From NCBI RefSeq assembly GCF_000179635.2, contig NC_014833.1, positions 1,710,001 to 1,742,000 on the forward strand: 32,000 nucleotides of DNA, in the 5' to 3' direction. Shown in pieces: positions 4,693 to 26,478 of this stretch (position 1 is its first letter; every line of letters starts with the position of its first letter). The translations under genes and the position numbers were made by a program. Source of the DNA: Ruminococcus albus 7 = DSM 20455 (GTDB lineage Bacteria > Bacillota > Clostridia > Oscillospirales > Ruminococcaceae). Below the pieces are notes generated by a model that saw only the letters and a list, made by a program, of their open reading frames with translations, did not search any database and had not been told where the DNA came from.

Positions 4693-6126
4693 TCAACTCA
4701 TTATTACTCTTTTTATCGAGCCGCTTATATCGTACATAAGTGTACCCTTATCGCCGTAGCTTATTGCAAATCCGTTGCGTCCAAGCTCGCTCTCGAAATC
4801 GGGGTCAAAAATGTAAGACTTTCCTGTACCGTTGTAGTTTTTTATCTCTACCCAGGAATGATCGACAAAACCGTTGCTTGTAAGTGTTCCGCTTGATATC
4901 TGGTGTGCATCATATCCAAGCATCTTAGCCATCTCACAGAAGCACGCTGCCATAACGTAGCAGTTGCCCTCGTGTGCGTCAAAGCCTCTGTCAGCATACC
5001 ATTCCATTCCGGGAGAACCGTCTCTCGGCAGCCATTCACCGTTGATATAGTAAGCGTATGGCATGATACACCAGTTGAATGCCTTATGAAGATCCCAGCC
5101 TACCTTGTCAAGTACAGCTTCGGCTTTTGCGTAGTAGGGAAGAGTGTGTACCTTAGCAGTAGCGGACTTATCTGCATTAACATAGGATTTGCCCATAAGG
5201 TTTACAGCAAGCACCCTGAAACTTACGTCCTTGTTTGCAGGTACGTTGATCTGTCTGCTGAGCTCACTGGTCTGACCGTGGAAGGACTCCTTACCGTTAA
5301 CGGTGTAGTATACATTATATACATCCGCATCGGCAGCTGCCTTCCAGCTTAGCTTTACATAGTTGCGCTCTGACTTTGCTTTAAGTCCTGTAACGTTTTC
5401 AGGTTTTATTGAAAGCTTGCCCTCATAGCCGTCGCTGAAGCTCTTTACGCCCTGCCTTGTTTCAGTATTGTAATATGTATATGGCATCACCTTTATGTTG
5501 ATGATATCGTCATCTGACCATCTCAGTGCGTTTACGTTTATACTGTTGCTCTTTACCTGATACTTTTCGCTACGGTCAGCACCCGAGATCACAACATCGT
5601 AACCGTCAACACCGTTTACAGCAGTCCAGTCAACTTTTACAATGCTTCGCAGGGATACTATGTCCGGAAGTTTGCTGAACCTGGTTGTTTTGGCAACTAT
5701 ACTGCTGTCACTGACCGTTTCAAGAAGTTCCAGCCAGTTCATCACTCTTATGCCTTTGATCTCGGCTATCATTATGCTGAGATCGGTGATGTTTATCTTT
5801 CCGTCTTCGTTGATATCTGCTGCTTTCAGTGCCTTATCGTTCAGATTGATCTTTGCTTTGATGAAAGCCGCTACCTTAGCAGCATCTGTTATATTCAGCT
5901 TGCCGTCGTTATTTAAATCTCCGGCAGCGTAGTCTTCTTCTTCAGTTGCAGCTACGCTTTCGGTGATATCTTCATCGGCGGTGGTATTCTCGTCTGCGTT
6001 GAAAAAGATCTCATCCGCAGGAACTGTCTGTGCGTTGTTGTCTGCAAATGCATATACAGATGTCTGTGATAAAACAAGTGCCATAGCTGCAGCTGCAGCG
6101 CAGAACTTTTTAGAGATATCAGTCAT
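4693..6126 (-). CDS. Secreted dockerin-containing protein with two Fn3-like domains and a C-terminal transglutaminase-like (papain-fold Cys-His-Asp) domain
   Basis: A signal peptide is followed by the dockerin repeats DLNNDGKLNITD and DINEDGKINITD. Fn3-like signatures are VKVDWTAVNGVDGYDVVIS and VKLSWKAAADADVYNVYYT. The transglutaminase core is GNCYVMAA (Cys389), DHSWVE (His423) and IFDPD (Asp441). RBS AGGAGA lies 6 nt upstream. Confidence 0.85.
   Translation of the reverse strand: MTDISKKFCAAAAAMALVLSQTSVYAFADNNAQTVPADEIFFNADENTTADEDITESVAATEEEDYAAGDLNNDGKLNITDAAKVAAFIKAKINLNDKALKAADINEDGKINITDLSIMIAEIKGIRVMNWLELLETVSDSSIVAKTTRFSKLPDIVSLRSIVKVDWTAVNGVDGYDVVISGADRSEKYQVKSNSINVNALRWSDDDIINIKVMPYTYYNTETRQGVKSFSDGYEGKLSIKPENVTGLKAKSERNYVKLSWKAAADADVYNVYYTVNGKESFHGQTSELSRQINVPANKDVSFRVLAVNLMGKSYVNADKSATAKVHTLPYYAKAEAVLDKVGWDLHKAFNWCIMPYAYYINGEWLPRDGSPGMEWYADRGFDAHEGNCYVMAACFCEMAKMLGYDAHQISSGTLTSNGFVDHSWVEIKNYNGTGKSYIFDPDFESELGRNGFAISYGDKGTLMYDISGSIKRVIMS
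5752..5922 (-). other. Type-I dockerin module (aa 69-125 of the CDS), placed N-terminally right after the signal peptide and acidic linker
   Basis: Two 12-residue Ca-binding F-hand loops (DLNNDGKLNITD, DINEDGKINITD), each followed by an amphipathic helix. Confidence 0.85.
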
Positions 6127-6210: not shown

Positions 6211-6513
6211 GACACGGTGAAACAGTTTTGTTAATAAGCAGATAACAACCGTGATTTGTAAAACAAATTGTGCTTACTGCCAATGTTTGGAAATGTCCTC
6301 GAAGATACGTCCGGTGCCGTGATATTTCTCGTGCTTTTATCATGTTAATATAATCTGCTCGGTTTTACGGAGTGCCGCAAGGCGGTTATATAATTCCTAA
6401 AAAGGCAAAGCAAAAGATAACTACGGGTGGTGATACGTTATCATGTGAAATGGGTATGTAATTGATCCTTTTTATCAGACGAATGCTGAAAACGATGTAT
6501 ATAGCCATATTCG

Positions 6514-6657
6514 TGCGATAACGTTGTCATTCCTTAGCGCGGGATCTTCATTTTGTTAAGATACTGAGGCAGATATCCTGCATAGTCCAAGGCTTTTTTT
6601 ATGAAATATCAGACAGTTAACGATGAACAGATACTGTGATGTGACAACGTTATCGCA
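6514..6657. repeat. 16-bp perfect inverted repeat (TGCGATAACGTTGTCA ... TGACAACGTTATCGCA) with a 112-nt spacer in a long non-coding gap
   Basis: Positions 6514-6529 are the exact reverse complement of 6642-6657. Each arm is itself centred on the palindrome AACGTT. The right arm ends 9 nt upstream of the -35 of the 6764 gene. Confidence 0.7.
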
Positions 6658-6665
6658 TCTTATCA

Positions 6666-6694
6666 TTGATTATGAAACAGATATATGTTATAAA
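6666..6694 (+). promoter_or_regulatory. Candidate sigma-A promoter of the lipoprotein/cupredoxin-repeat operon
   Basis: TTGATT (6666-6671), 17-nt spacer, TGtTATAAA (-10 at 6689-6694). Confidence 0.4.
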
Positions 6695-6763: not shown

Positions 6764-7360
6764 ATGATGAGAGCTAGATATGCTTTTACTGTCGCAGTTA
6801 TGATGTTTGTGCTGACAGGCTGCGGCGAGGCAGGGGATAAAGTATCAGATGCTTATAAAAAAAGCAGCGATAAACCGCCTGCGACCGTAAAGACGACAGA
6901 AGTCACCACAACAGAGATCTCCACGGAAACTACAGTGGAAACATCGGAGAAAACAACCTCGGTGACTACCTCTGCCATAACTGATGAAAGCAGCGAAGCA
7001 GTAACCAGAACAGAAACAGTAACCGAGGAAGTATCCGAAGTACCTGCGGAGAGCGAGATCATACAGGAAAAATACGATACATTCTATGGTATACTCATAG
7101 ATGAGGATTGCAGTGATGTGGAAGACCCCGTAATGCATGACCTGCCATGTATGCTGATGGAAGAATGTCGTGCAAGCGGATACGGTCTTGATATACTTCA
7201 GGAGGATGGTTCGTGGATATTCTATATGTTCGACAGTAATGGTCAGGATTTAGCCTGGGAATATCTGCTGCAGACCGAGCGTGAGTACGGTCTGTATGTA
7301 ACTGTTACAGGCAGATGGGAGGACAATGTGATCAAGGTCATATCAATAGAGGAAAGCTAA
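6764..7360 (+). CDS. Lipoprotein of unknown function (Thr/Glu-rich linker plus about 95-aa C-terminal Cys/Met/His-containing domain)
   Basis: Lipobox VLTGC and a T/E/S-rich linker. The C-terminal domain carries the motif MHDLPCMLMEEC. The stop is 12 nt before the next gene, whose RBS lies inside the gap. Confidence 0.8.
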   Translation: MMRARYAFTVAVMMFVLTGCGEAGDKVSDAYKKSSDKPPATVKTTEVTTTEISTETTVETSEKTTSVTTSAITDESSEAVTRTETVTEEVSEVPAESEIIQEKYDTFYGILIDEDCSDVEDPVMHDLPCMLMEECRASGYGLDILQEDGSWIFYMFDSNGQDLAWEYLLQTEREYGLYVTVTGRWEDNVIKVISIEES

Positions 7361-7372
7361 GGAGGAAGTAAA

Positions 7373-8986
7373 ATGGAAAAAAATGTAGTGGGGAAAAGTA
7401 AAATTGTGTTGGTTTCAGTACTGGTGATATTTGCAGTGCTGGCGGCTTTGCTGCCGATGAATGCAGCTGCTGAGGAAGTGCAGACGCTGGTTACTCCCTA
7501 TGATGAACTGTGGAAAGGTGATATCACAGTTACAGCGGGTGTTCCTGTCAGGTGGTATGTAAATGTTCCCGAAGGTACCGAGCCACGCGGCTGCGGTGCT
7601 ACCGTAAAGATCCCTGGGCTTGGTTTTGGCACAGATACCCATAACAAGGAGGAGGGTCATATAGTACTCAAGGAGGGGAATAATTTTATATACGAATTCA
7701 CTCCCGAAATGGAAGAGGATATCCTCTTTACCTGCTGGATGGGATCCGGCTGTCATAAAAACTATATCCATGTCAAAGCCGCTGAAGATCAGGGCAGCGA
7801 GGGAAATCCGTCCGGGGCTTCAGAAGAAAACGGAGCCAAAAAGATAGTTACTGCATACAGCGATCTCTGGACAGGAGTGATATCTGCAAAAGTCGGAGAG
7901 CCTGTAAGGTGGTATGTAAGTGTTCCTGAGGGTACCGAACCCCGCGGCTGCGGTGCTACCGTAAAGATCCCCGATCTGGGTTTCGGTACAGATACATACA
8001 ATAAGGAAGAGGGTCATATAGTCCTCAAGGAGGGCGAGAATTTCATATACGAATTCACTCCCGAAATGACCGGCGATATCCTATTTACGTGCTGGATGGG
8101 ATCTGGTTGTCATTCCAATTATTTCCATATAACCGAGAATGGCACATATTCTGTTCCCGCCCCCGCTGATCCCTCTGATATTACTGCTTCATGGAACGGT
8201 GAAAACGCTGTAATAGGATTTACAACACCCATAGCCCCCGAGGGTTCAAAGATAAAGGGCTACAAGGTAATAGCAGCCGATGATGAAGGCAACAGAAAGA
8301 AAGCAACAGGAGATTCAAGTCCTGTTATTATTGAAGGGCTTGATAGCAGCAAAAACTACACGATAACCGTTACCACGCTTGGTACATCAGGCAAAAGCGA
8401 GGGCGGCAGCGCTGTACTCTCGGCGGTGACACAGAGTATCCCTGAAAATAAACCCGATGACGACAGCAAGGCAGACTCATCACCGGCAAAAGAAGTACAG
8501 ATAATTGTTACAGATTTTGCTGACCTCTGGACTGGAAATATCACCGTTAAGCAGGGCGTTTCTGTCAGGTGGTATGTAAATGTCGTGAATGGTGCAGACG
8601 CCAAGGGCTGTGCCGCTACCATAAAGATACCCGGACTTGGCTTCGGTACTGACACGCACAACAAGAATGAGGGTCATATAGTTCTTAAAGAGGGAGAAAA
8701 CTTCATATACGAATTTACACCCGAAACTTCAGGCGATATCCTATTTACCTGCTGGATGGGTTCGGGCTGCCATTACAATTATATCCATGTTACCTCGGAC
8801 GGGATTGCTGATCCCTCTGCCGCAACAGGCGGAAAGGTTAACAGCAGACCAGACAGCCGATCAGACAGCAGCACAGCAGTAAAGAATAATTCAGCAAATC
8901 CCAAAACGGGTAACACTGATTACTCCATATTACTTATCATAGCAATTGTCGCACTTATACTCATCAGCAGGAAAAAGGCAAAATAG
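7373..8986 (+). CDS. Cell-wall-anchored surface protein with three cupredoxin-like Cys/His/Met modules, one Fn3-like domain and an NPKTG-type sorting signal
   Basis: Strong RBS AAGGAGG 7 nt upstream and a signal peptide. The module ...PVRWYVNVPEGTEPRGCGATVKIPGLGFGTDTHNKEEGHIVLKEGxNFIYEFTPExxxDILFTCWMGSGCH occurs three times. The C-terminus reads NPKTG-hydrophobic-RKKAK. Confidence 0.85.
   Translation: MEKNVVGKSKIVLVSVLVIFAVLAALLPMNAAAEEVQTLVTPYDELWKGDITVTAGVPVRWYVNVPEGTEPRGCGATVKIPGLGFGTDTHNKEEGHIVLKEGNNFIYEFTPEMEEDILFTCWMGSGCHKNYIHVKAAEDQGSEGNPSGASEENGAKKIVTAYSDLWTGVISAKVGEPVRWYVSVPEGTEPRGCGATVKIPDLGFGTDTYNKEEGHIVLKEGENFIYEFTPEMTGDILFTCWMGSGCHSNYFHITENGTYSVPAPADPSDITASWNGENAVIGFTTPIAPEGSKIKGYKVIAADDEGNRKKATGDSSPVIIEGLDSSKNYTITVTTLGTSGKSEGGSAVLSAVTQSIPENKPDDDSKADSSPAKEVQIIVTDFADLWTGNITVKQGVSVRWYVNVVNGADAKGCAATIKIPGLGFGTDTHNKNEGHIVLKEGENFIYEFTPETSGDILFTCWMGSGCHYNYIHVTSDGIADPSAATGGKVNSRPDSRSDSSTAVKNNSANPKTGNTDYSILLIIAIVALILISRKKAK
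7481..7774 (+). repeat. Intragenic repeat unit 1 (cupredoxin-like module, aa 37-134)
   Basis: It shares long identical DNA strings with units 2 and 3 (for example GGTGGTATGTAA, GGTCATATAGT, ATATACGAATT, CTGCTGGATGGG). Confidence 0.8.
7841..8131 (+). repeat. Intragenic repeat unit 2 (aa 157-253)
   Basis: Roughly 85% DNA identity to unit 1 by eye. CGCGGCTGCGGTGCTACCGTAAAGATCCC is identical in both. Confidence 0.8.
8495..8791 (+). repeat. Intragenic repeat unit 3 (aa 375-473)
   Basis: More diverged (VNGADAKGCAAT replaces PEGTEPRGCGAT), but the THNK(E/N)EGH and FTCWMGSGCH ligand-like motifs are kept. Confidence 0.8.
8897..8986 (+). other. C-terminal sorting signal: NPKTG motif, hydrophobic helix, basic tail
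   Basis: AAT CCC AAA ACG GGT at 8897-8911, then TDYSILLIIAIVALILIS and RKKAK-stop. Confidence 0.65.
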
Positions 8987-9030: not shown

Positions 9031-9068
9031 AACTGCCCCCTGATGTTAGTTCACACCGGAGGGCAGTT
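9031..9068. terminator. Hairpin between convergent genes (probable bidirectional terminator)
   Basis: AACTGCCC(CC) ... (GG)aGGGCAGTT. The flanking T/A tracts are weak. Confidence 0.45.
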
Positions 9069-9080
9069 TATATACAGCGC

Positions 9081-9884
9081 TCATACGCCGAATGTATTTT
9101 TGAATGCAGTTATGTTTCTGCCGTCGGGTTTCCCGTATACAGCGAATACTATGTGGGTGAAGCATTTTTCGTAGCCATCATCTTTAAGGACATTTTGGAA
9201 ATATCCTGACACCTTCTCAGGAGGATTGCCGAAGGCACCGCATCCCCACGCACCAAGCACAAGCTCACGGCATCCGTGGGATGCGGCTGTATGAAGCATT
9301 ATACGTATGCGCCTTGTCATGGTTTCTTCTATCAGTTTTTCTGATGCTATCAAAGCAGCACCGCGTCTGTTTGGTGCAGGAACAGTTATGACCGATACGC
9401 GGAAGGGTGTTGGCAAAAGCTTCATATCGCTGTCACGGAATACCCATACCTCAGGTGAAAACAGCATATAGTCTGATTCTGTTCTTGAAAGGTGAGTGTT
9501 GTTGAATAAGTACATCTCGGTTGCAGCAGCAGATGTTATTGAACGGTACAGGGTACTGCATCTGCACAATGATTCCTCCTGTGCGTGAGCCCCATGACGA
9601 AATCCGCCGCCGGGCTTGTGGGCATTGGCGAAGTTCATTACCATTGGTTCTTTAAGCCGCCTTGCAGCCTGAAAGGAATCCTCACAGGTAACTTCGGTAA
9701 CACAGGATCCACCTGTGAAGTATTCTGATATATCCATAGCGAGCATATCTTTACCAATCGCGGGGGTTATTACCTCAACCGCAGACATATCATTCTTCGG
9801 CAGATCTATCGTTCTGCCCTCTGCTGTGTATTTATGCTCATCGGTTATCCTTATAGTCTCATTTGCGATAGCTATATAATTCAT
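9081..9884 (-). CDS. Bacterial-type poly(ADP-ribose) glycohydrolase-like macrodomain protein (DUF2263 / TIGR02452 family)
   Basis: NFANAHKPGGGFRHGAHAQEES matches the GGG-X7-QEE catalytic signature of microbial PARG. 267 aa. RBS GGGAGA lies 6 nt upstream. Confidence 0.82.
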   Translation of the reverse strand: MNYIAIANETIRITDEHKYTAEGRTIDLPKNDMSAVEVITPAIGKDMLAMDISEYFTGGSCVTEVTCEDSFQAARRLKEPMVMNFANAHKPGGGFRHGAHAQEESLCRCSTLYRSITSAAATEMYLFNNTHLSRTESDYMLFSPEVWVFRDSDMKLLPTPFRVSVITVPAPNRRGAALIASEKLIEETMTRRIRIMLHTAASHGCRELVLGAWGCGAFGNPPEKVSGYFQNVLKDDGYEKCFTHIVFAVYGKPDGRNITAFKNTFGV

Positions 9885-9945: not shown

Positions 9946-11688
9946 TCATACTACTACGAATCTGTTCTTGCCGCCGCGCTTTGCATCGTAAAGCGCTGAA
10001 TCAACACGGAAGAGAAGTTCATCGAGTGTATCGTCATCCAGTGCTTCGGTAACTCCAACAGATATAGTTCGCTGTCCCGCAAGAGGGAATTCTATATCAT
10101 TGAAATAATTTACCATTTCCTTAGCTGCAATTATAGCATCATTTACGCCTACAGGAAGCAATACCATGAATTCCTCACCGCCCCAGCGTCCTGCGGAGGC
10201 TATATTGTCGTGTCTTGCAATGCCTTCCTTCAGCATATCTGCAAGTCCTATTATGACGTTGTCACCTTCATTGTGTCCATAGGTATCGTTAACGGATTTG
10301 AAGTTGTCGATATCTATCATTACCAGTGACAGCGGCTTGCCGCTTATGAGTCGTTCGTTTATTCTGTGCTGTATTTCCGCACGGTTGTAAAGCTTCGTAA
10401 GGCTGTCAAGGATCGCGGCTTCTTCCAGCTCACGGAATGCAGCATTGATATAGTTGGCAAGGCGGTTAATAAGCGCCATCTTGCCTGTGAACTCATTTTC
10501 ATCGACTTCAAGGGCTTTTGCAGGTAAATCCTCTGCAAGTCCCTCACGCATACCTACCAGCACCATGGTAACATTGTGCTGATTGACATATTTGCCTGTA
10601 CGCAGAAATTCACCCGAGGTGTAGAATCCTGAGGTCGGCGCGATGTTTCCGAATGGCATGGATTCTTTGGATATCTCTGTATTTCCCCAGAAGCTTCGCC
10701 TTGCAGCGCAGGAAAATATCTGTACGTTCTCGGGTCTGAAATCTCGTATCTTGATACCTTCTTCTCGTACAGATTCCAGTATCGTACCGGGATCACCGTA
10801 AGCAAGCTGAGCAGATACATCTGATTCCATATCAGATGTCATCATCAGCGAACCGTCTTTCAGGCTCTCGGTAGGCGCACGCAGTATATTTATGCCGTGA
10901 TGGTTATAAAAGAACGGAAATTCCAGCGTGTGACTGAAAAATTTATCGTCATTCTTTATATTGAGATATTTGTGGTATACATCGTAAGCGGGAGCACCGT
11001 CAAGCTCATACAGCCTGCTGCCCTCTGACTTGGTTACATGGAATACCTTTCCAAGAGGTTTCCATCCGGTAACATAGGTGGATATGATATCAAGATCTTC
11101 TCCGCCAAGCAGCCAGAATACTACACTTCCTTCGGATATGCCTCCGTTCTTTGAAAATACGCAGGCATGATGATCGTTTACATCCGCTGCAAAAGCACCG
11201 CCTCCGAATATCTGTATATCTGGCTTAGCCTGACTCAGCTTTTCGCAGAAGCCCGTCATAGACATACCGCGTATAGTCGTTAACAGTTCCACCGCCTTGA
11301 CCCAGGGATTCCTGTCTATCATATCAAGCAGGTCATCAGTGACCGCTTCATAGGTCTCAGCAGAAAGGTCATACTGCTTTATTATCATATTTGTGGAAGG
11401 AAATTCAAAAACAGTGCATATCAGGCTAATCTCTTCGCCCGAATATTCACCGCCGATGATATTGCCGTTTGTTGAGCATCCGAAGTATTCAGCATTCGGC
11501 AGTTCTCTGCTGACAATGTCACATACGTTTTTAATTTTTTCTACATCGTTGTTCTCCGAATATATCTGGAATACGATATGGGAGTATACACTTGAATCAC
11601 ACCAGAGCCTTATTTTTGTAAGTTCATTCTTGAGTGTAAAATCAGTGTGATAGTCAAACTGGAATTGTCTCAATATTATCGCCTCCAC
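9946..11688 (-). CDS. FIST-domain sensor fused to a GGDEF diguanylate cyclase
   Basis: FIST_N/C signatures are YFGCSTNGNIIGGE, IQIFGGGA and SGFYTSGEF. The GGDEF domain has an intact active site RWGGEEF and no canonical RxxD I-site 5 residues upstream. The longest ORF starts with GTG at 11688 without an SD. An in-frame TTG at 11673 lies 8 nt after GGAGG and is the more likely start. Confidence 0.88.
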   Translation of the reverse strand: MEAIILRQFQFDYHTDFTLKNELTKIRLWCDSSVYSHIVFQIYSENNDVEKIKNVCDIVSRELPNAEYFGCSTNGNIIGGEYSGEEISLICTVFEFPSTNMIIKQYDLSAETYEAVTDDLLDMIDRNPWVKAVELLTTIRGMSMTGFCEKLSQAKPDIQIFGGGAFAADVNDHHACVFSKNGGISEGSVVFWLLGGEDLDIISTYVTGWKPLGKVFHVTKSEGSRLYELDGAPAYDVYHKYLNIKNDDKFFSHTLEFPFFYNHHGINILRAPTESLKDGSLMMTSDMESDVSAQLAYGDPGTILESVREEGIKIRDFRPENVQIFSCAARRSFWGNTEISKESMPFGNIAPTSGFYTSGEFLRTGKYVNQHNVTMVLVGMREGLAEDLPAKALEVDENEFTGKMALINRLANYINAAFRELEEAAILDSLTKLYNRAEIQHRINERLISGKPLSLVMIDIDNFKSVNDTYGHNEGDNVIIGLADMLKEGIARHDNIASAGRWGGEEFMVLLPVGVNDAIIAAKEMVNYFNDIEFPLAGQRTISVGVTEALDDDTLDELLFRVDSALYDAKRGGKNRFVVV

Positions 11689-20751: not shown

Positions 20752-21426
20752 ATGAGACTGCTGCTTGCAGAAGATGAAAAGGAGCTTTCCAATGCTCTGG
20801 TAGCTGTACTGAAACATAATAATTATTCTGTTGATGCTGTGTATAACGGTCTTGATGCTTATGATTATATCATTGGTGCTGAGTATGACGGAATCGTACT
20901 TGATATCATGATGCCGGGACTTGACGGCTTGACTGTGCTTGAACGTATCCGCGAAAAAGGTATACAGACTCCTGTGCTGCTGCTCACAGCAAAGGCTCAG
21001 GTTGAGGACAGGATAGCCGGACTTGATACAGGGGCAGATGATTATCTCACAAAGCCCTTTGCTATGGGTGAACTGTTGGCGCGGATAAGGGCTATGACAA
21101 GGCGCAGGGCTGAATTTTCGCCTAATACGCTGAAAGTCGGAAATGTCACTCTTGACAGAGAAAGGTTTGTCATTTCCACCAAAAACGGTGAGACCAAACT
21201 TGGCAATAAAGAATTCCAGGTATTGGAGATGTTAATGCTCAACCGCAATATCCTTATTTCCACAGAAAGGCTTATGGAGAAGATATGGGGTTTTGATGCT
21301 GAGGCTGAGATAAGCGTGGTGTGGGTGTATATATCCTACATCAGGAAGAAGCTTTCTGCGGTCGGTGCCGATGTGGAGATAAAGGCCAGCCGCGGTGTGG
21401 GATACACGCTGGAGGTAAAGGAATGA
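20752..21426 (+). CDS. OmpR/PhoB-family response regulator
   Basis: The receiver has the expected acidic pocket and phospho-Asp context (LLAEDE, VLDIMMPGLDG, LTAK). The C-terminal winged helix contains VEIKASRGVGY. RBS AAGGAG is present. Confidence 0.92.
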   Translation: MRLLLAEDEKELSNALVAVLKHNNYSVDAVYNGLDAYDYIIGAEYDGIVLDIMMPGLDGLTVLERIREKGIQTPVLLLTAKAQVEDRIAGLDTGADDYLTKPFAMGELLARIRAMTRRRAEFSPNTLKVGNVTLDRERFVISTKNGETKLGNKEFQVLEMLMLNRNILISTERLMEKIWGFDAEAEISVVWVYISYIRKKLSAVGADVEIKASRGVGYTLEVKE

Positions 21427-22724
21427 TAAAAAGACTTCGGCGCAGGTTCATATTGATAGCTGCCTCAAGTGTGATGGCGGTAGAGCTTCTTGTGGTAGGT
21501 CTGATAAATGTCATATATATATCGCAGATAAACAAGCGCGAGTTACAGCTCATGCAGATACTGTGTGACAATGACGGCAGATTTCCCGAATTCGGCAAGC
21601 ACTTTGACCAGAAACCCGACAGTAGGAATGAAAACGTTTCCATACCTCCCCCCGAAAAGAAGTACAGACTTGGTGACCTTGGATTTAAGGTGAATGAAGA
21701 AACACGATATCAGACAAGGTATTTCTATATTCGCTATGATGAGAATATGAATCCTGCTGAGATAAATACGGGTCACGTAGCTGCAGTCACCTCAGGTGAG
21801 GCGCTGGGCTATGCGAAAGAGGTCGGGGATTCCGGCGAAACATCAGGTTTTATGGGCGATTACCGCTTTTCGGTAATTGAAAAAGAAAACGGTAAGCTGT
21901 ACATCTTTTTGGATTGCCGTGAAGATATACGAATGAAGCGTTCTTTCATGCTCATATCTTCGGCTATCTCTCTGGGGGGCTGGCTGCTGGTGTGCCTGCT
22001 CATAATTATATGCTCGCGGGCAGCTGTAAAACCGTTTATCGAGAATTTCGAGAAGCAGAAAATGTTCATCACTGATGCCGGACATGAGATAAAAACTCCT
22101 CTTGCTATAATACAGGCGAATGCAGAGGTCATCGAGATGATAAACGGCACCAGTGAGTGGACTCAGAGTATAACCAACCAGGTCACAAGGCTGAACGGGC
22201 TGACAGCAGATCTGCTGCGGCTGTCGCGTATGGAAGAGGATGGAGTCAGACAAACATTTGCTGAGTTCGATCTCTCTGAAGCCTTTGCAGATATAGCAGG
22301 ACCGTTCAGGACACTTGCAGAGAACAAGGGGCTATCCTTTGATGTCAAAGCTCAGGAGGGTATACGCATAAACGGCGACAGCTCCGCTATCAGACAGCTT
22401 ATATCCATACTTACAGAGAATGCAGTAAAGTATTGCGATGAAGGTGGCTGCATAACTGTTTCATTGGAAAAGACAAGCAGCGGCAGACACGCTTTGATAA
22501 GTACAGAGAATGACTGCGCTGAACCTCCCGAACATCCTGAACGTCTGTTTGACCGCTTTTACAGGGCAGATAAGTCACGCGGACGTGAGGAAGGTGAAGC
22601 TGCATCAGGCTACGGCATAGGACTTTCGGTAGCCAGGGCAGTGGTAATGTCCCACAAAGGCAGGATATCCTGTAAAGCTGAAGACGGCAGGATAGTATTC
22701 ACCGCGAAGCTGCGGTGCCTGTAA
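21423..22724 (+). CDS. Sensor histidine kinase (two TM helices flanking a roughly 150-aa extracytoplasmic domain)
   Basis: The start ATG overlaps the RR stop (ATGA at 21423-21426). H-box is DAGHEIKTPL and the N/G boxes are ENAVKY and SGYGIGLS. The ORF-track start at 21321 lies inside the RR gene and is rejected. Confidence 0.88.
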   Translation: MIKRLRRRFILIAASSVMAVELLVVGLINVIYISQINKRELQLMQILCDNDGRFPEFGKHFDQKPDSRNENVSIPPPEKKYRLGDLGFKVNEETRYQTRYFYIRYDENMNPAEINTGHVAAVTSGEALGYAKEVGDSGETSGFMGDYRFSVIEKENGKLYIFLDCREDIRMKRSFMLISSAISLGGWLLVCLLIIICSRAAVKPFIENFEKQKMFITDAGHEIKTPLAIIQANAEVIEMINGTSEWTQSITNQVTRLNGLTADLLRLSRMEEDGVRQTFAEFDLSEAFADIAGPFRTLAENKGLSFDVKAQEGIRINGDSSAIRQLISILTENAVKYCDEGGCITVSLEKTSSGRHALISTENDCAEPPEHPERLFDRFYRADKSRGREEGEAASGYGIGLSVARAVVMSHKGRISCKAEDGRIVFTAKLRCL

Positions 22725-22837
22725 AAAATGAAATAATATATTTCAGATAACTTACACATACGGTTAAGCTTCAATTAAGGTTGATAGCTTATAATAATAA
22801 CCATAGAAGAAAAACACATGGGAAAGGAATGATTTAC

Positions 22838-23602
22838 ATGGGTGCTGTACAGGAGATTTTCAAGAGGGTCGAAAAAAAGTACATAGTTACTGATGAACAG
22901 CAGGAAGAACTTGTACGTGTTATGGCAGGTAAAGCTGCTGCAGATAATTACGGGCTCACAACTATCTGCAACATATACTACGACACTCCGGATCATCAGC
23001 TGATAAGGACTTCTATGGAGAAGCCTGTTTATAAGGAAAAGCTGCGCATACGCAGCTACGGCGTGCCCGATAAGGACAGCAAGGTGTTCGTGGAGCTGAA
23101 GAAGAAGTACAAAGGTGTAGTCTATAAGAGGCGTGTTGATATGTCGCTGATAGATTCCTATGAATTTGTAAACTTCGGTGTTAACCCCGGAAAGAATCCT
23201 CAGATCGAGAAGGAGATAGCGTATTTTCTTAAATACTACCGCGATATAGGCCCCGCGATGTATCTCAGCTACGACAGGATCGCTTATGCAGGTACTGATA
23301 ATCCCGACCTGCGTATCACCTTTGACGGCAACATCACCTACCGCGAGGAGGAAACAAGGCTTGAAAAAGGGGTGTGGGGCGATAAGCTTCTTGATCCGCA
23401 CACAAGGATCATGGAGATAAAGATCCCCGGCGCTATGCCTCTGTGGCTCAGCTTTTTGCTTGATCGTATGAAAATCTATCCGGCAAGCTTTTCAAAATAC
23501 GGAGAGGCATTTAAAAGGGTCTTCAGTGAAGCCCTTGATCCCAACGAATACTTAAAGCTTGGCGGGACGAAAAGTAAAGGAAAGGTGAATGATTGTGCTT
23601 AA
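22838..23602 (+). CDS. VTC-domain protein (polyphosphate-polymerase-like triphosphate tunnel / CYTH-like fold)
   Basis: Charged beta-strand motifs FKRVEKKYIV, KLRIRSY, VFVELKKKYKGVVYKRR and IMEIKIP are present. The start is set at ATG 22838, 8-9 nt after GGAAAGGA. 254 aa. Confidence 0.78.
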   Translation: MGAVQEIFKRVEKKYIVTDEQQEELVRVMAGKAAADNYGLTTICNIYYDTPDHQLIRTSMEKPVYKEKLRIRSYGVPDKDSKVFVELKKKYKGVVYKRRVDMSLIDSYEFVNFGVNPGKNPQIEKEIAYFLKYYRDIGPAMYLSYDRIAYAGTDNPDLRITFDGNITYREEETRLEKGVWGDKLLDPHTRIMEIKIPGAMPLWLSFLLDRMKIYPASFSKYGEAFKRVFSEALDPNEYLKLGGTKSKGKVNDCA

Positions 23603-24293
23603 TGAGATCTATATGAATGCGGCGGACCTTACGTCCGGTTTAGGAGCGTCAGCTGTTACTACCAAAACTTTTGCTGTATGCTCACTGGTTTCCCTTTTGG
23701 TAGGAGCAGTTATAGCAGTTGCTTTCTGCTTCAGACAGCATAAGAGCAAGAGCTTCTTTACTACCCTTGCGCTGCTGCCGCTCATCGTGCAGGTTATAAT
23801 AATGATGGTCAACGGCAATCTTGGAACAGGCGTTGCGGTAGCAGGTGCCTTCAGTCTTGTAAGATTCCGTTCGATGCAGGGAAATGCCAAGGATATACTT
23901 GCCATATTTATGGCTATGGCAGTTGGCATCGCCACCGGTACCGATAATCTTAAACTTGCGATAATATTCACTCTTGTGGTATGTGCAGTGAACATTGGAT
24001 ATCTTGTACTTCCTCTGGGAATGGATGACAACAGCGACAAGGTGCTGACCATCACTATCCCCGAAAGTCTTGATTACAGCGATGTATTTGACGATATCTT
24101 CAGAAAGTTCACTGTAAAGGCAGACCTTGTACAGGTAAAGACAACCAATATGGGCAGCCTTTTCAAACTGAAATATGATATCACGCTGAAAAAAGGTGTA
24201 AGCGAAAAAGCTTTCATAGACGAACTCAGAGTCCGTAACGGCAATCTTGAGATACTCTGCTGCAGAAGAATGCCTGAAACATCACAGCTCTGA
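23589..24293 (+). CDS. DUF4956-like integral membrane protein (4-5 TM helices plus soluble C-terminal domain)
   Basis: It overlaps the VTC gene by 14 nt. The N-terminal 140 aa are hydrophobic, and the C-terminal roughly 90 aa are charged (VLTITIPESLDYSDVFDDIF...). Confidence 0.72.
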   Translation: MIVLNEIYMNAADLTSGLGASAVTTKTFAVCSLVSLLVGAVIAVAFCFRQHKSKSFFTTLALLPLIVQVIIMMVNGNLGTGVAVAGAFSLVRFRSMQGNAKDILAIFMAMAVGIATGTDNLKLAIIFTLVVCAVNIGYLVLPLGMDDNSDKVLTITIPESLDYSDVFDDIFRKFTVKADLVQVKTTNMGSLFKLKYDITLKKGVSEKAFIDELRVRNGNLEILCCRRMPETSQL

Positions 24294-24302
24294 TAGCTTT
24301 AT

Positions 24303-24344
24303 AATACTCGCCCGAAGCCGATATTTTCGGGTGAGTATTATTTG
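24303..24344 (+). terminator. Strong hairpin (terminator or attenuator) between DUF4956 and the beta-helix lipoprotein gene
   Basis: AATACTCGCCCGAA / TTCGGGTGAGTATT forms a 14-bp stem with one G-U pair and a 9-nt loop. It is followed only by ATTTG. Confidence 0.5.
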
Positions 24345-24396
24345 AATCAAATTTTAAGTTATAACATTTAACCAAATGAAATGGGAGGCGGCATTA

Positions 24397-26478
24397 ATGA
24401 AAATAAATACAATGAAAAGAGCAGCAGCCCTTGCGGCAGCGATAACAGTGCTAGCCATGACAGGCTGTTCGGATTCTAAGAATAATACAAATAAGACATC
24501 AACAGAAGTAAAGACAGCCGTAGTAACATCAACGGAAGCCGCCATTGACGCAGATGATATCGAAGTAGGGTATGAAGAAGATGATGCGGTCAGCGTGTCA
24601 TTTTCGGACAGCGGTATCGAAACGGAAGGCAGCGGGGTAACAGTTGACGGAACTGTGCTTACTATAACTGCTGCAGGAACGTATAAACTTAGCGGTACCT
24701 GCTCAAACGGCAGGATAGTCATAGAGGCAGGCAAGGAGGATAAGGTGAAGATTGTCCTGGACGATCTTGACCTGACCTGCAAGGATAACGCAGTTATCAC
24801 TGCAAGAACTGCAGATAAAGTGTTCCTGCTGCTTGAGAGCGAAACAGTTAACACCCTTGCAGACGCAACGGCTTATAATCTGGCTGCTGATGATAATACC
24901 GATGCTGCAGTATTCGCAAAATGCGACCTTATCATAAACGGTGACGGGACTCTCAATGTGACAGGCAACTACAAACATGGAATAGTTTCTAAAGATGACC
25001 TTGTTATTACGGGAGGCAATATCACTGTTAAGGCAGAATCATCAGGTCTTGTCGGTAAAGACAGCGTAAAAATAAGCGCGGGCAGTATTGATGTGACATC
25101 GGGCAAGGACGGAGTGAAGTCTGATAACTCGGAAGATGAGGGCAAAGGCATCATAAGTATCACAGGCGGTACAATTAAAATAAATGCAGGAGGTGATGGT
25201 ATCTCTGCTGCAAAGGAACTTCAGATAAGCGGCGGAGATTTCAATATCACAACAGGCGGAGGAAGTGTCAACGCTTCGATGAAGTCAGAGGCTATGCCCA
25301 ATGGTGACCGGATACCAGGATTTGGCGGTAAAGGCGATTTTACACCTCCCGATATGGGCAATTTCGATATGGGTGATCTCGGTACTCCGCCTGATATGGG
25401 TGAACGCCCTGATCGCGGAGACTTTGACCCTTCAAAATTTGATAATAATGGTGAACGTCCCGATTTCGGTGATATGGGCACTCCTCCCGAAATGCCTGAT
25501 GGCGAAACCTTTGAAAAGTCGGAAGAACAGTCAGCAGATTCAGATAATGATACTTCTTCCGGAAATACAGAAACTTCTTCGGATACTGTATCAACTTCAG
25601 CCAAAGCCCTGAAAAGCGGTGGCATCATCATGATCGAAAACGGCACCATTACAATAGATTCCGCAGATGACAGCCTGCACTGCGACGGGTCTGCAAACAT
25701 CAGCGGGGGAAGTATCACAGCATCTTCCGGTGATGACGGTATCCATGTCGGGGGTGATCTGATAATAGACGGCGGTGATGTGACTATCACAAAGAGCTAT
25801 GAGGGCATAGAGGGTATGACCGTTACCGTATCAGGCGGTACTATAAATGTTACCGCAAATGACGATGGCATAAACTGTGCAGGCGGTAGTGATACAGGTT
25901 CATCCGATCGCATGGGCAGGGATCAGTTCGCAGCACAGGAGGGAGTTTACCTTAAAATAAGCGGAGGTACAGTAAACGTTGATGCCGGAGGAGATGGACT
26001 TGATTCAAACGGAGATCTGTATATCGAGGGCGGAATGATAACTGTGAGCGGCCCTGAGAACAGCGGTAACGGGTCTATAGACCACAATGGTTCAGCAAGT
26101 ATAACAGGCGGAACGATAATAGCTGCAGGAGCTGTGGGCATGGAAGAAATGTTCGACGAAGAGGGCACTACTCAGTGCGCAGTCCTCCACGATTTCACAA
26201 AGAGCTTCTCAGCCGATACCGAATTCACCGTCACCGATAAGGACGGTAATACCATACTTTCATTCACTGATCCCAAGACGTGGCAGGGCGTGATATTCTC
26301 ATCTCCCGACCTTAAACAGGGTGAAACATATACAGTTTCAGCAGGCGGCGAAAGCGCCGAGATCACCATAGACGGGGTTATAACCTCAAACAGTACCGGT
26401 GGTATGGGCAATATGGGAGGTATGGGCGGACATGGCAGAAACGGCGGACGTTTAGGCACATCTCAAACCATGACATAA
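24397..26478 (+). CDS. Cthe_2159-type carbohydrate-binding parallel beta-helix lipoprotein
   Basis: GGGAGG lies 8 nt before ATG 24397. Lipobox AMTGC. The family-typical strings are VLTITAAGTYKLSGT, VKIVLDDLDL, ADKVFLLL, HGIVSKDDLVITGG, GKDGVKSD and DGISAAKELQISGGDFNITTGGGS. A second beta-helix half is present (DDSLHCDG, GDDGIHVGGDL, YEGIEG, NDDGINCAGG, GGDGLDSNGDLYIEGG). Confidence 0.85.
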   Translation: MKINTMKRAAALAAAITVLAMTGCSDSKNNTNKTSTEVKTAVVTSTEAAIDADDIEVGYEEDDAVSVSFSDSGIETEGSGVTVDGTVLTITAAGTYKLSGTCSNGRIVIEAGKEDKVKIVLDDLDLTCKDNAVITARTADKVFLLLESETVNTLADATAYNLAADDNTDAAVFAKCDLIINGDGTLNVTGNYKHGIVSKDDLVITGGNITVKAESSGLVGKDSVKISAGSIDVTSGKDGVKSDNSEDEGKGIISITGGTIKINAGGDGISAAKELQISGGDFNITTGGGSVNASMKSEAMPNGDRIPGFGGKGDFTPPDMGNFDMGDLGTPPDMGERPDRGDFDPSKFDNNGERPDFGDMGTPPEMPDGETFEKSEEQSADSDNDTSSGNTETSSDTVSTSAKALKSGGIIMIENGTITIDSADDSLHCDGSANISGGSITASSGDDGIHVGGDLIIDGGDVTITKSYEGIEGMTVTVSGGTINVTANDDGINCAGGSDTGSSDRMGRDQFAAQEGVYLKISGGTVNVDAGGDGLDSNGDLYIEGGMITVSGPENSGNGSIDHNGSASITGGTIIAAGAVGMEEMFDEEGTTQCAVLHDFTKSFSADTEFTVTDKDGNTILSFTDPKTWQGVIFSSPDLKQGETYTVSAGGESAEITIDGVITSNSTGGMGNMGGMGGHGRNGGRLGTSQTMT

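Follow-up and report, generated by a model that had tools for sequence, protein, structure and literature searches.

What do two adjacent genes of Ruminococcus albus 7 (ATCC 27210 / DSM 20455), annotated as encoding a 'hypothetical protein' and a 'fibronectin type III domain-containing protein', do at the surface of this bacterium? The pair lies in a 32-kb stretch of DNA, referred to here as the window, whose coordinates are used throughout. Its first gene encodes a lipoprotein with a C-terminal domain that we call lipoC, and its second gene a protein of 537 amino acids (aa) with three tandem modules. These modules are an exported sister lineage of the Cupredoxin_1/CupA domains, invisible to the Pfam model. 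We consider it an even bet that the gene pair constitutes an extracytoplasmic relay for a thiophilic metal, composed of two binding proteins of one transcription unit.

6764-7360, plus strand: lipoprotein gene, 198 aa, identical to ADU21994.1 / WP_013498159.1, annotated 'hypothetical protein'
7361-7365, plus strand: Shine-Dalgarno sequence GGAGG of the 537-aa open reading frame (ORF), abutting the lipoprotein stop codon
7373-8986, plus strand: surface-protein gene, 537 aa, identical to ADU21995.1 / WP_013498160.1, annotated 'fibronectin type III domain-containing protein'

Both ORFs lie where an earlier note on this DNA had placed them, and the 12 nucleotides (nt) described there as separating the genes were found as well, the lipoprotein stop codon occupying 7358-7360 and the next ATG starting at 7373. 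No terminator-like site was found between the two genes, and a gap of 12 nt leaves no room for one. Because the genes on either side, dockerin/transglutaminase-like upstream and PARG-like downstream, are both on the opposite strand, the pair is a self-contained two-gene unit. The lipoprotein gene and the 537-aa gene form one transcription unit.

The modules as an exported branch of the Cupredoxin_1/CupA lineage

The 537-aa protein comprises the following parts.

7373-7471, plus strand: Sec-type signal peptide, aa 1 to ~33 (...LPMNAAA/EE), no twin-arginine motif, read from the sequence
7475-7786, plus strand: module 1, aa 35-138, 195 bits against the family hidden Markov model (HMM)
7835-8143, plus strand: module 2, aa 155-257, family HMM 189 bits, 78% identical to module 1
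8171-8407, plus strand: fibronectin type III (Fn3)-like spacer, aa 267-345
8492-8803, plus strand: module 3, aa 374-477, family HMM 194 bits, 73-74% identical to modules 1 and 2
8897-8983, plus strand: sortase-type sorting signal, NPKTG (aa 509-513), 19 hydrophobic residues, RKKAK

The signal peptide and the three modules proposed for this ORF were borne out, each module being about 104 aa long and scoring about 190 bits against the family HMM. The Fn3-like segment expected between modules 2 and 3 was located as well; it reaches 24.7 bits against Pfam fn3 (E 2.8e-5, cut-off 25), and homologue P0099 reaches 30 bits. Direct Pfam and NCBIfam scans of the whole protein and of single modules gave no useful match, and a Self-incomp_S1 match (36.7 bits summed over the repeats) was discarded as a chance match to the FTCWMG region. 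A word-indexed protein search with one module returned only 6 relatives and missed the 537-aa protein itself; an exhaustive profile search revealed a much larger family. This search recovered 487 proteins, 51 of them at E<=1e-30. Among its distant matches (n=90), 66 were members of PF13473, the Pfam family Cupredoxin_1, 36 carried DsbD_2 and 24 carried HMA, and the matched regions coincided with PF13473. When the module family was aligned with these PF13473 relatives, hhalign gave a probability of 99.9% (E 8e-34). The consensus of the relatives, ...NGCN..I.IP...L..GEN.IEFTP...G...YSCWMGMI...I.VV, agrees with the outline that the earlier note had given (C...FSCWMGMI) for the HMA/DsbD_2 ('TauE-like') fusions. 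Compared to these relatives, the module shows three changes: a Met-to-Ser exchange, a two-residue Cys-His insertion and an insertion of a loop of about 10 residues (G.GTD..NKEEG).

As modelled by AF2, the module is a cupredoxin fold: module 1 was predicted as a seven-stranded domain (pLDDT 97, pTM 0.87) whose top Foldseek matches in the PDB were Streptococcus pneumoniae CupA (4f2e, E 8.6e-5) and the CopA metal-binding domain (4f2f), followed by AcoP, the Bacillus anthracis Cupredoxin_1 protein (4hci/4hcf/4hcg) and other cupredoxins; the top TM-score was 0.59-0.65. A joint profile matched CupA with E 9e-13 and the CopA metal-binding domain with E 2e-12, in both cases across the entire domain. 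The Cupredoxin_1 assignment made in the earlier note thus stands as homology, by profile search, hhalign and fold search, and falls short with the Pfam model itself, which gave no match even at E<=10.

The joint-profile alignment places module residue C40 on CupA C74, C87 on C111, M89 on M113 and S91 on M115. In CupA, the equivalents of the aligned residues build a binuclear Cu(I) site that comprises a bis-thiolate S1 and an S2 rich in Met (PMC7558416; PMC5552934), and both CupA and the CopA metal-binding domain function in copper resistance (PMC7558416). Residues are numbered here within the module; in module 1 of the 537-aa protein, Cys40, Cys87, Met89, Cys93 and His94 are Cys74, Cys121, Met123, Cys127 and His128. 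We counted conservation across 67 module instances from 54 proteins.

Invariant or nearly so (of 67): Cys40 67, Cys87 66, Met89 67, Cys93 66, His94 66
Further positions (of 67): Asn96 65, His99 59, His62 56, His56 (the 'THNK' His) 26

Given this conservation, Cys, Cys, Met, Cys and His are the robust candidate ligands. The strings GC(G/A)AT, THNK(E/N)EGH / TYNKEEGH and FTCWMGSGCH are present as had been claimed, and the extra Cys-His noticed in the last of them is real, being a two-residue insertion kept in 66/67 instances. The ligand-like set read from these strings was upheld in part: its Cys, Met and Cys-His members are near invariant, whereas the 'THNK' His (26/67) and the 'EGH' His (56/67) are not, and the NKEEG loop is wholly absent in some homologues. 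A type-1 blue-copper electron-transfer centre was rejected, as the upstream ligand position is Cys40 rather than His and the C87-W-M89 loop is not followed by His-Xn-Met; the better comparison for the module is the Cys...Cys-x-Met Cu(I) site of CupA and the CopA metal-binding domain. We also consider an Fe-S cluster an unlikely use of the Cys3-His sets in Sec-exported proteins, which should fold outside the cell.

The lipoprotein partner

The lipoprotein consists of a signal peptide, a low-complexity tether and the lipoC domain.

6764-6823, plus strand: lipoprotein signal peptide, lipobox L-T-G-C, Cys20, read from the sequence
7073-7357, plus strand: C-terminal domain with an OB (oligonucleotide/oligosaccharide-binding)-like fold (lipoC), aa 104-198, ~95 residues

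The lipobox MMRARYAFTVAVMMFVLTGC (VLTGC) fits [LVI][ASTVI][GAS]C and is kept in homologues, and the N-terminus shows weak matches to lipoprotein models. Between lipobox and lipoC extends a tether of about 80 residues (aa 21 to ~100) that is rich in Thr, Glu and Ser. The Cys/Met/His motif attributed to the C-terminal domain, MHDLPCMLMEEC, is present at aa 124-135. Alignments revealed that Cys116, His125, Cys129, Met132 and Cys135 of lipoC are invariant and Met130 nearly so, and that distant variants retain the pattern G-x6-C-x5/6-P-x2-H-x3-C-x2-M-x2-C-x2-SG-x-G. The AF2 model (pLDDT 90.4) is an OB-like barrel whose strands 1 and 2 flank a helical insert, on which the candidate ligands lie. No Pfam or NCBIfam match was obtained for the domain, and a sequence search of the PDB returned signal-peptide noise only. 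Six small secreted proteins of about 120 aa (P0278-P0283) carry the lipoC motif as C-x10-H-x3-C-x-L-M-x2-C-x2-SGY/F; the OB-like Cys3-His domain therefore represents a wider, unnamed family.

Genetic coupling and the operon of relatives

A survey of 52 genome loci, nearly all from rumen Ruminococcus, Oscillospiraceae and Lachnospiraceae and from termite-gut metagenome-assembled genomes (MAGs), included 38 with enough upstream sequence to be scored. In 21/38 of them, a lipoC gene lies immediately upstream of the module gene on the same strand. Moreover, the two domains occur in single polypeptides. L014 (9839-11296) and L034 (326-1828) each encode a sortase-signal protein that carries, besides a signal peptide, one module together with a lipoC-like Cys3-His domain and additional beta-rich domains; each of these fusion genes has a stand-alone lipoC lipoprotein gene next to it. 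A classical Cupredoxin_1 domain (C...CWMG or CGMNM) is fused to a lipoC-like domain in L008 (291-1496), L041 (3726-5036), L045 (8314-9465) and L053 (744-1802); these fusions come from termite-gut MAGs (Family XIII, Oscillospiraceae, Treponema), are membrane-anchored and directly follow the module gene. In L008, which alone among these fusion loci has called genes, an ABC-2 type transporter and DUF4340 come after the fusion gene. This Rosetta-stone pattern is the strongest evidence suggesting that module and lipoC work together, and with the synteny it lends strong support to the functional link that had been proposed between the two proteins.

In many relatives, the pair is part of a larger operon of the order NMT1/SsuA/SaoX-like substrate-binding protein (SBP), permease, ATPase, DUF4418, FtsX/MacB_PCD permease, ATPase, (GNAT), lipoC, module. 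It is carried by R. albus KH2T6 (L009, 3697-9876), by AR67 (L013), by L010, L016, L022 and L033 and by others; in L016, the lipoC/module pair stands first. The importer belongs to the NitT/TauT (sulfonate/taurine/nitrate) group, and its closest named NCBIfam models are SaoX, SaoP and SaoA. Cys motifs recur along the operon, with FCC in the SBP, CC in the extracytoplasmic domain of FtsX/MacB and four Cys in DUF4418, one of whose two subgroups has an additional conserved His. As for the genes flanking the operon, metA, encoding homoserine O-acyltransferase of methionine biosynthesis, lies divergently upstream in R. albus KH2T6 (L009 2296-3234, minus strand), and pdxS, pdxT and a GntR/aminotransferase regulator lie upstream in L016. 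The literature searched contained nothing under the protein accessions, and the sole DUF4418 paper is unrelated to the lipoC/module system; the lipoC domain and the operon combination are not described there.

The composition of this operon bears on the direction in which a metal would flow. MacB/FtsX-type ATP-binding cassette (ABC) systems are usually exporters. This habit, together with the conserved CC in the FtsX extracytoplasmic domain, fits a detoxification sink or buffer, in which the array would bind toxic metals (Cu(I), Ag, Cd or Hg) within the wall, or would accept metal that the FtsX/MacB-type pump drives out and that reaches it through DUF4418 and the lipoprotein, with the flow directed outward. 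The copper-resistance role of CupA and the CopA metal-binding domain points the same way, and multiple tandem sites would suit storage. Against such a sink, the operon of relatives contains an SBP-dependent ABC system, and systems of this kind import; resistance genes or sensors of the CopA, CsoR or CopY type are not found nearby; and a wall-bound stoichiometric sink with three sites per protein would have a small capacity. On balance, we regard this outward-directed scheme as unlikely without being far-fetched. For the relay that we favor, the SBP-dependent importer makes us lean toward uptake.

A conserved putative operator and predicted promoter

Upstream of the pair, we identified a putative regulatory region, and downstream of it a hairpin.

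6514-6529 (TGCGATAACGTTGTCA) and 6642-6657 (TGACAACGTTATCGCA), unstranded: perfect 16-nt inverted repeat, arms 112 nt apart
6517-6528 and 6643-6654: palindrome-like box GAYAACGTTRTC, one inside each arm of the inverted repeat
6666-6694, plus strand: predicted promoter, -35 TTGATT (6666-6671), 17-nt spacer, -10 TATAAA (6689-6694)
9032-9066, unstranded: hairpin rich in GC, with TTTATATA after it, in the gap between the converging 537-aa and PARG-like genes

The box GAYAACGTTRTC, with AACGTT at its center, has 2 matches in the window compared to 0.21 expected. A third, degenerate copy was seen near 6428-6444. The predicted promoter begins 11 nt downstream of the proximal box. In five related loci, the same box precedes the first gene of the orthologous operon.

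L009: 3606-3617
L013: 3607-3618
L022: 3625-3636
L010: 4139-4150
L016: 3568-3579

The window pair and the operons of relatives thus have a common layout, GAYAACGTTATC / 11 nt / TTGAY / 17 nt / TATAAA-like -10, in at least five genomes, and in the window a second, inverted copy of the box completes the perfect 16-nt inverted repeat. At the other end of the unit, the hairpin is likely a terminator: the region after the 537-aa gene folds stably over 116 nt (-39.2 kcal/mol, z = -4.4), and a consensus terminator scan made no call.

The 637-bp upstream region showed no riboswitch or leader RNA match in Rfam even at E<=1. The failure to find an S-box or other sulfur riboswitch speaks against a thiol redox or sulfur relay, in which the cysteines would carry reducing equivalents or persulfide/polysulfide sulfur and would serve the sulfonate-type importer, sulfur/methionine metabolism or the protection of surface thiols from oxidants. 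Such a role could draw on the membership of the importer in the sulfonate/taurine/nitrate group, on metA standing divergently upstream in L009, on the Cys-Cys motifs in several operon proteins and on the fusion of distant module relatives to DsbD_2, a thiol-disulfide transporter family. However, the same distant relatives carry HMA heavy-metal domains, the Cys...Cys-x-Met of the module matches, position by position, a Cu(I) site defined by structure, and the invariant Met and His favor metal coordination. We therefore judge a sulfur-directed function to be rather improbable and retain the metal relay as our working model.

An old, maintained triplication

According to the earlier note, the modules were 80-85% identical, shared long identical DNA strings and arose by a duplication that was recent or homogenised. 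Pairwise identity was in fact 73-78%, in protein and DNA alike, the longest identical DNA run among the modules was 29 nt, and only 57-67% of the identical residues shared by the modules use an identical codon. Furthermore, the nearest relative of each module is a module in the protein of another organism (79-83%) rather than a sibling (72-74%); module 3, for instance, shares 83% identity with P0103, a protein with one module. Recent duplication and gene conversion were rejected on the combined evidence of identity, synonymous divergence and the nearest-neighbour comparison. Because each module is closer to modules of other organisms than to its siblings, the triplication is old and has been maintained. 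Nor do tandem copies set this protein apart, as had been supposed: relatives have 1, 2 or 3 modules, and a 536-aa homologue has the same three-module layout.

Surface display

The 537-aa protein has the layout of a sortase substrate, with a signal peptide, NPKTG, 19 hydrophobic residues and RKKAK, and a sortase very probably links it to the cell wall via NPKTG. A clear xPxTG / hydrophobic / basic tail is found in 25/59 family members, with near-variants in others, and relative P0003 is named an LPXTG anchor protein by NCBI. Curated sorting-signal models gave weak NCBIfam matches to the 537-aa protein (EF0750_LPXTG E 0.017, IsdC E 0.025), and no sortase was found among the window ORFs scanned against Pfam. 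The cell-wall attachment originally envisaged is thus plausible, as the sorting signal is present and recurs across the family. Three module proteins (P0096, P0109, P0135) terminate in a type I dockerin where others have a sortase signal, which would place them on cohesin-bearing scaffoldins and make the putative metal-binding module a cellulosome-associated component. With xPxTG signals in some members and dockerins in others, surface display is a family trait that employs more than one anchor.

An architecture of signal peptide, repeats, Fn3 and sortase signal is typical of Gram-positive surface adhesins; some homologues carry dockerins, as cellulosomal components do, and a dockerin protein is encoded next door. 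It is conceivable that the modules serve, as Ig-like beta-sandwiches, to attach the bacterium to plant material or other cells, that their Cys and His residues form a structural Zn site or disulfides, and that the lipoprotein is an unrelated neighbour. We assign very little weight to this structural explanation, which would hardly account for the lipoC synteny, the lipoC fusions and the promoter shared with Cys-motif transport genes. Likewise, the homology is specifically to metal-binding domains, and, against a variable surface, the ligand positions are kept.

A proposed trans-envelope metal relay

In the relay that we propose, the 537-aa protein would be exported by Sec and anchored to the wall, where it would present its three Cupredoxin_1/CupA-lineage modules, each offering a CupA-type bis-thiolate plus thioether (Cys...Cys-x-Met) as candidate ligands together with the family-specific Cys-His. 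The lipoprotein, held at the membrane and equipped with a long flexible linker, would offer an OB-like domain with its own Cys3-His-Met set. At the cell surface, a soft metal ion may be captured by the modules, which would exchange it with the lipoprotein domain by ligand swapping. Because the pair is the distal part of an eight-gene transport operon in relatives, we infer that the two proteins would represent the outer two stations of a trans-envelope thiolate relay. The metal would then be delivered to the importer, so that the system would serve the acquisition of a metal made scarce by sulfide rather than its disposal. Our best guess for the metal is Cu(I), given the homology to CupA and the reducing, sulfidic habitat of the rumen.

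Several observations weigh against this scheme. At the level of the modules, the Pfam model Cupredoxin_1 (PF13473, gathering threshold 27 bits) gave no match to the whole protein at E<=1 or to single modules at E<=10. The CupA ligand Met115 is replaced by Ser91 in all three modules and in 53/67 family instances, and Cys93/His94 sit several residues into the last strand of the AF2 model. The fold matches of lipoC, to OB folds of the single-stranded DNA-binding protein (SSB) type and to SilF/CusF, are weak and not significant (Foldseek E 0.06-0.7, TM 0.40-0.49). At the genomic level, 15/38 loci are without lipoC, and the pair of R. albus 7 has no transport genes next to it, nor is any present in the 32-kb window. 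CopA, CopZ, CsoR and CopY are encoded neither in the window nor in the related loci examined. Finally, the GAYAACGTTRTC operator is closer to a LacI-type palindrome than to a known metal-sensor box.

We also put forward, as a tentative and rather doubtful extension, that the pair is the outermost part of a multi-station thiolate relay of herbivore-gut Gram-positives, which would handle a thiophilic trace metal, a metal-sulfide or an organometallic species and would be controlled by one regulator binding GAYAACGTTATC. From the outside in, its stations would be the wall- or cellulosome-displayed module, the Cys3-His lipoprotein, the Cys-Cys FtsX, DUF4418 and the Cys-Cys SBP, and the ABC permease. 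If true, this relay would give strict anaerobes a new means of reclaiming metals from sulfide.

If module and lipoC bind and pass on a soft metal, a testable function would follow for the lipoC domain, DUF4418 and the Cys-Cys variants of FtsX and SBP. This would shed light on the ways in which strict anaerobes acquire Cu, Zn, Ni or Co, or keep them in check, in habitats where sulfide immobilises them, and on trace-element nutrition in the rumen. The conserved operator provides a direct way to the rest of the regulon.

Genomic surroundings

Pfam scans of the other window ORFs revealed no metal, copper, sortase or relatives' transport genes. A tblastn search for a copy of the module gene on an R. 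albus 7 plasmid, using the L013 single-module protein as query, gave no match, and one with an SBP query gave unrelated matches only. Further genes of the window are listed below.

4693-6126, minus strand: divergent neighbour, 477-aa secreted protein with a type I dockerin and two Fn3-like stretches, ending in a transglutaminase-like cysteine protease core (Pfam Transglut_core, weak)
9081-9884, minus strand: microbial PARG-type (poly-ADP-ribose glycohydrolase-like) protein, adjoining the next gene
9946-11688, minus strand: FIST-FIST_C-GGDEF diguanylate cyclase
20752-26478, plus strand: response regulator, histidine kinase, then VTC-domain protein, DUF4956 protein and 700-aa Cthe_2159-family carbohydrate-binding protein

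The last cluster may be polyphosphate- or surface-related.

Comparison with known systems

The operon of relatives is reminiscent of the SAO (selenocysteine-assisted organometallic) system of Clostridioides difficile and other anaerobes, which likewise combines a NitT/TauT-type importer, a lipoprotein SBP with a Cys-Cys motif and Cys motifs across many operon proteins. In SAO, the repeated Cys-Cys motifs have been taken as a signature of heavy-metal or organometal handling (Haft & Gwadz, 10.1101/2022.07.06.499078). The two systems are nevertheless distinct. The relatives' proteins fall well short of the SAO equivalog cut-offs (55 vs 300, 101 vs 295, 265 vs 360), the MerB-like lyase and selenoproteins of SAO were not seen in the relatives' loci examined, and the SAO paper mentions no DUF4418, FtsX or cupredoxin (10.1101/2022.07.06.499078). 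SAO-like genes are lacking from the R. albus 7 window.

For lipoC, the periplasmic Cu(I)/Ag(I) chaperones CusF/SilF offer the closest analogy, being small extracytoplasmic OB barrels of the kind that would deliver a soft metal to a transporter and ranking among its top, albeit not significant, fold matches. CusF uses His/Met/Met and a Trp, whereas lipoC presents Cys3-His-Met, and there is no sequence similarity between them.

With respect to the module, the B. anthracis Cupredoxin_1 protein (PDB 4HCF, Cu-bound; 4HCG, Zn-bound; 4HCI) belongs to the same fold family (Foldseek E 1e-3 to 5e-3, profile E 1e-3) but is without Cys...Cys-x-Met at the aligned positions and is more distant. Homology is clear (hhalign 99.9%) for the PF13473 domains that Clostridia and other anaerobes carry in HMA-DsbD_2-Cupredoxin_1 membrane proteins. 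They have the outline G.PV.W...GC..I.IP...L..G.N.IEFTP...G...(F/Y)(T/S)CWMG in common with the module, and tandem copies occur among them as well. These domains differ in having CWMGM (Cys-x-Met-x-Met) and in being joined to a membrane domain that resembles a transporter; the window family shows CWMGSGCH, stands alone, is predicted to be surface-anchored and scores below the Pfam threshold.

The best structural match is CupA, which has the cupredoxin fold in common with the module and whose Cys74, Cys111 and Met113 align with Cys40, Cys87 and Met89. Of the four-ligand site of CupA, the module keeps these three, has Ser in place of Met115 and adds the Cys-His and the loop of about 10 residues. 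CupA is encoded with CopA and CopY; the R. albus 7 window has no P-type ATPase or CopY. Whereas CupA is a single cytoplasmic domain with an N-terminal membrane helix that works with CopA, the module protein has three domains, is Sec-exported and ends in a sortase signal. So far, CupA-type domains have been known from the cytoplasm of a few streptococci, as copper chaperones. In major rumen fibre degraders, a sister lineage has been exported, multiplied and, as predicted, displayed on the wall. The kind of fold is itself already known, and what is new is the location and architecture in which this Cupredoxin_1/CupA kind of domain occurs.

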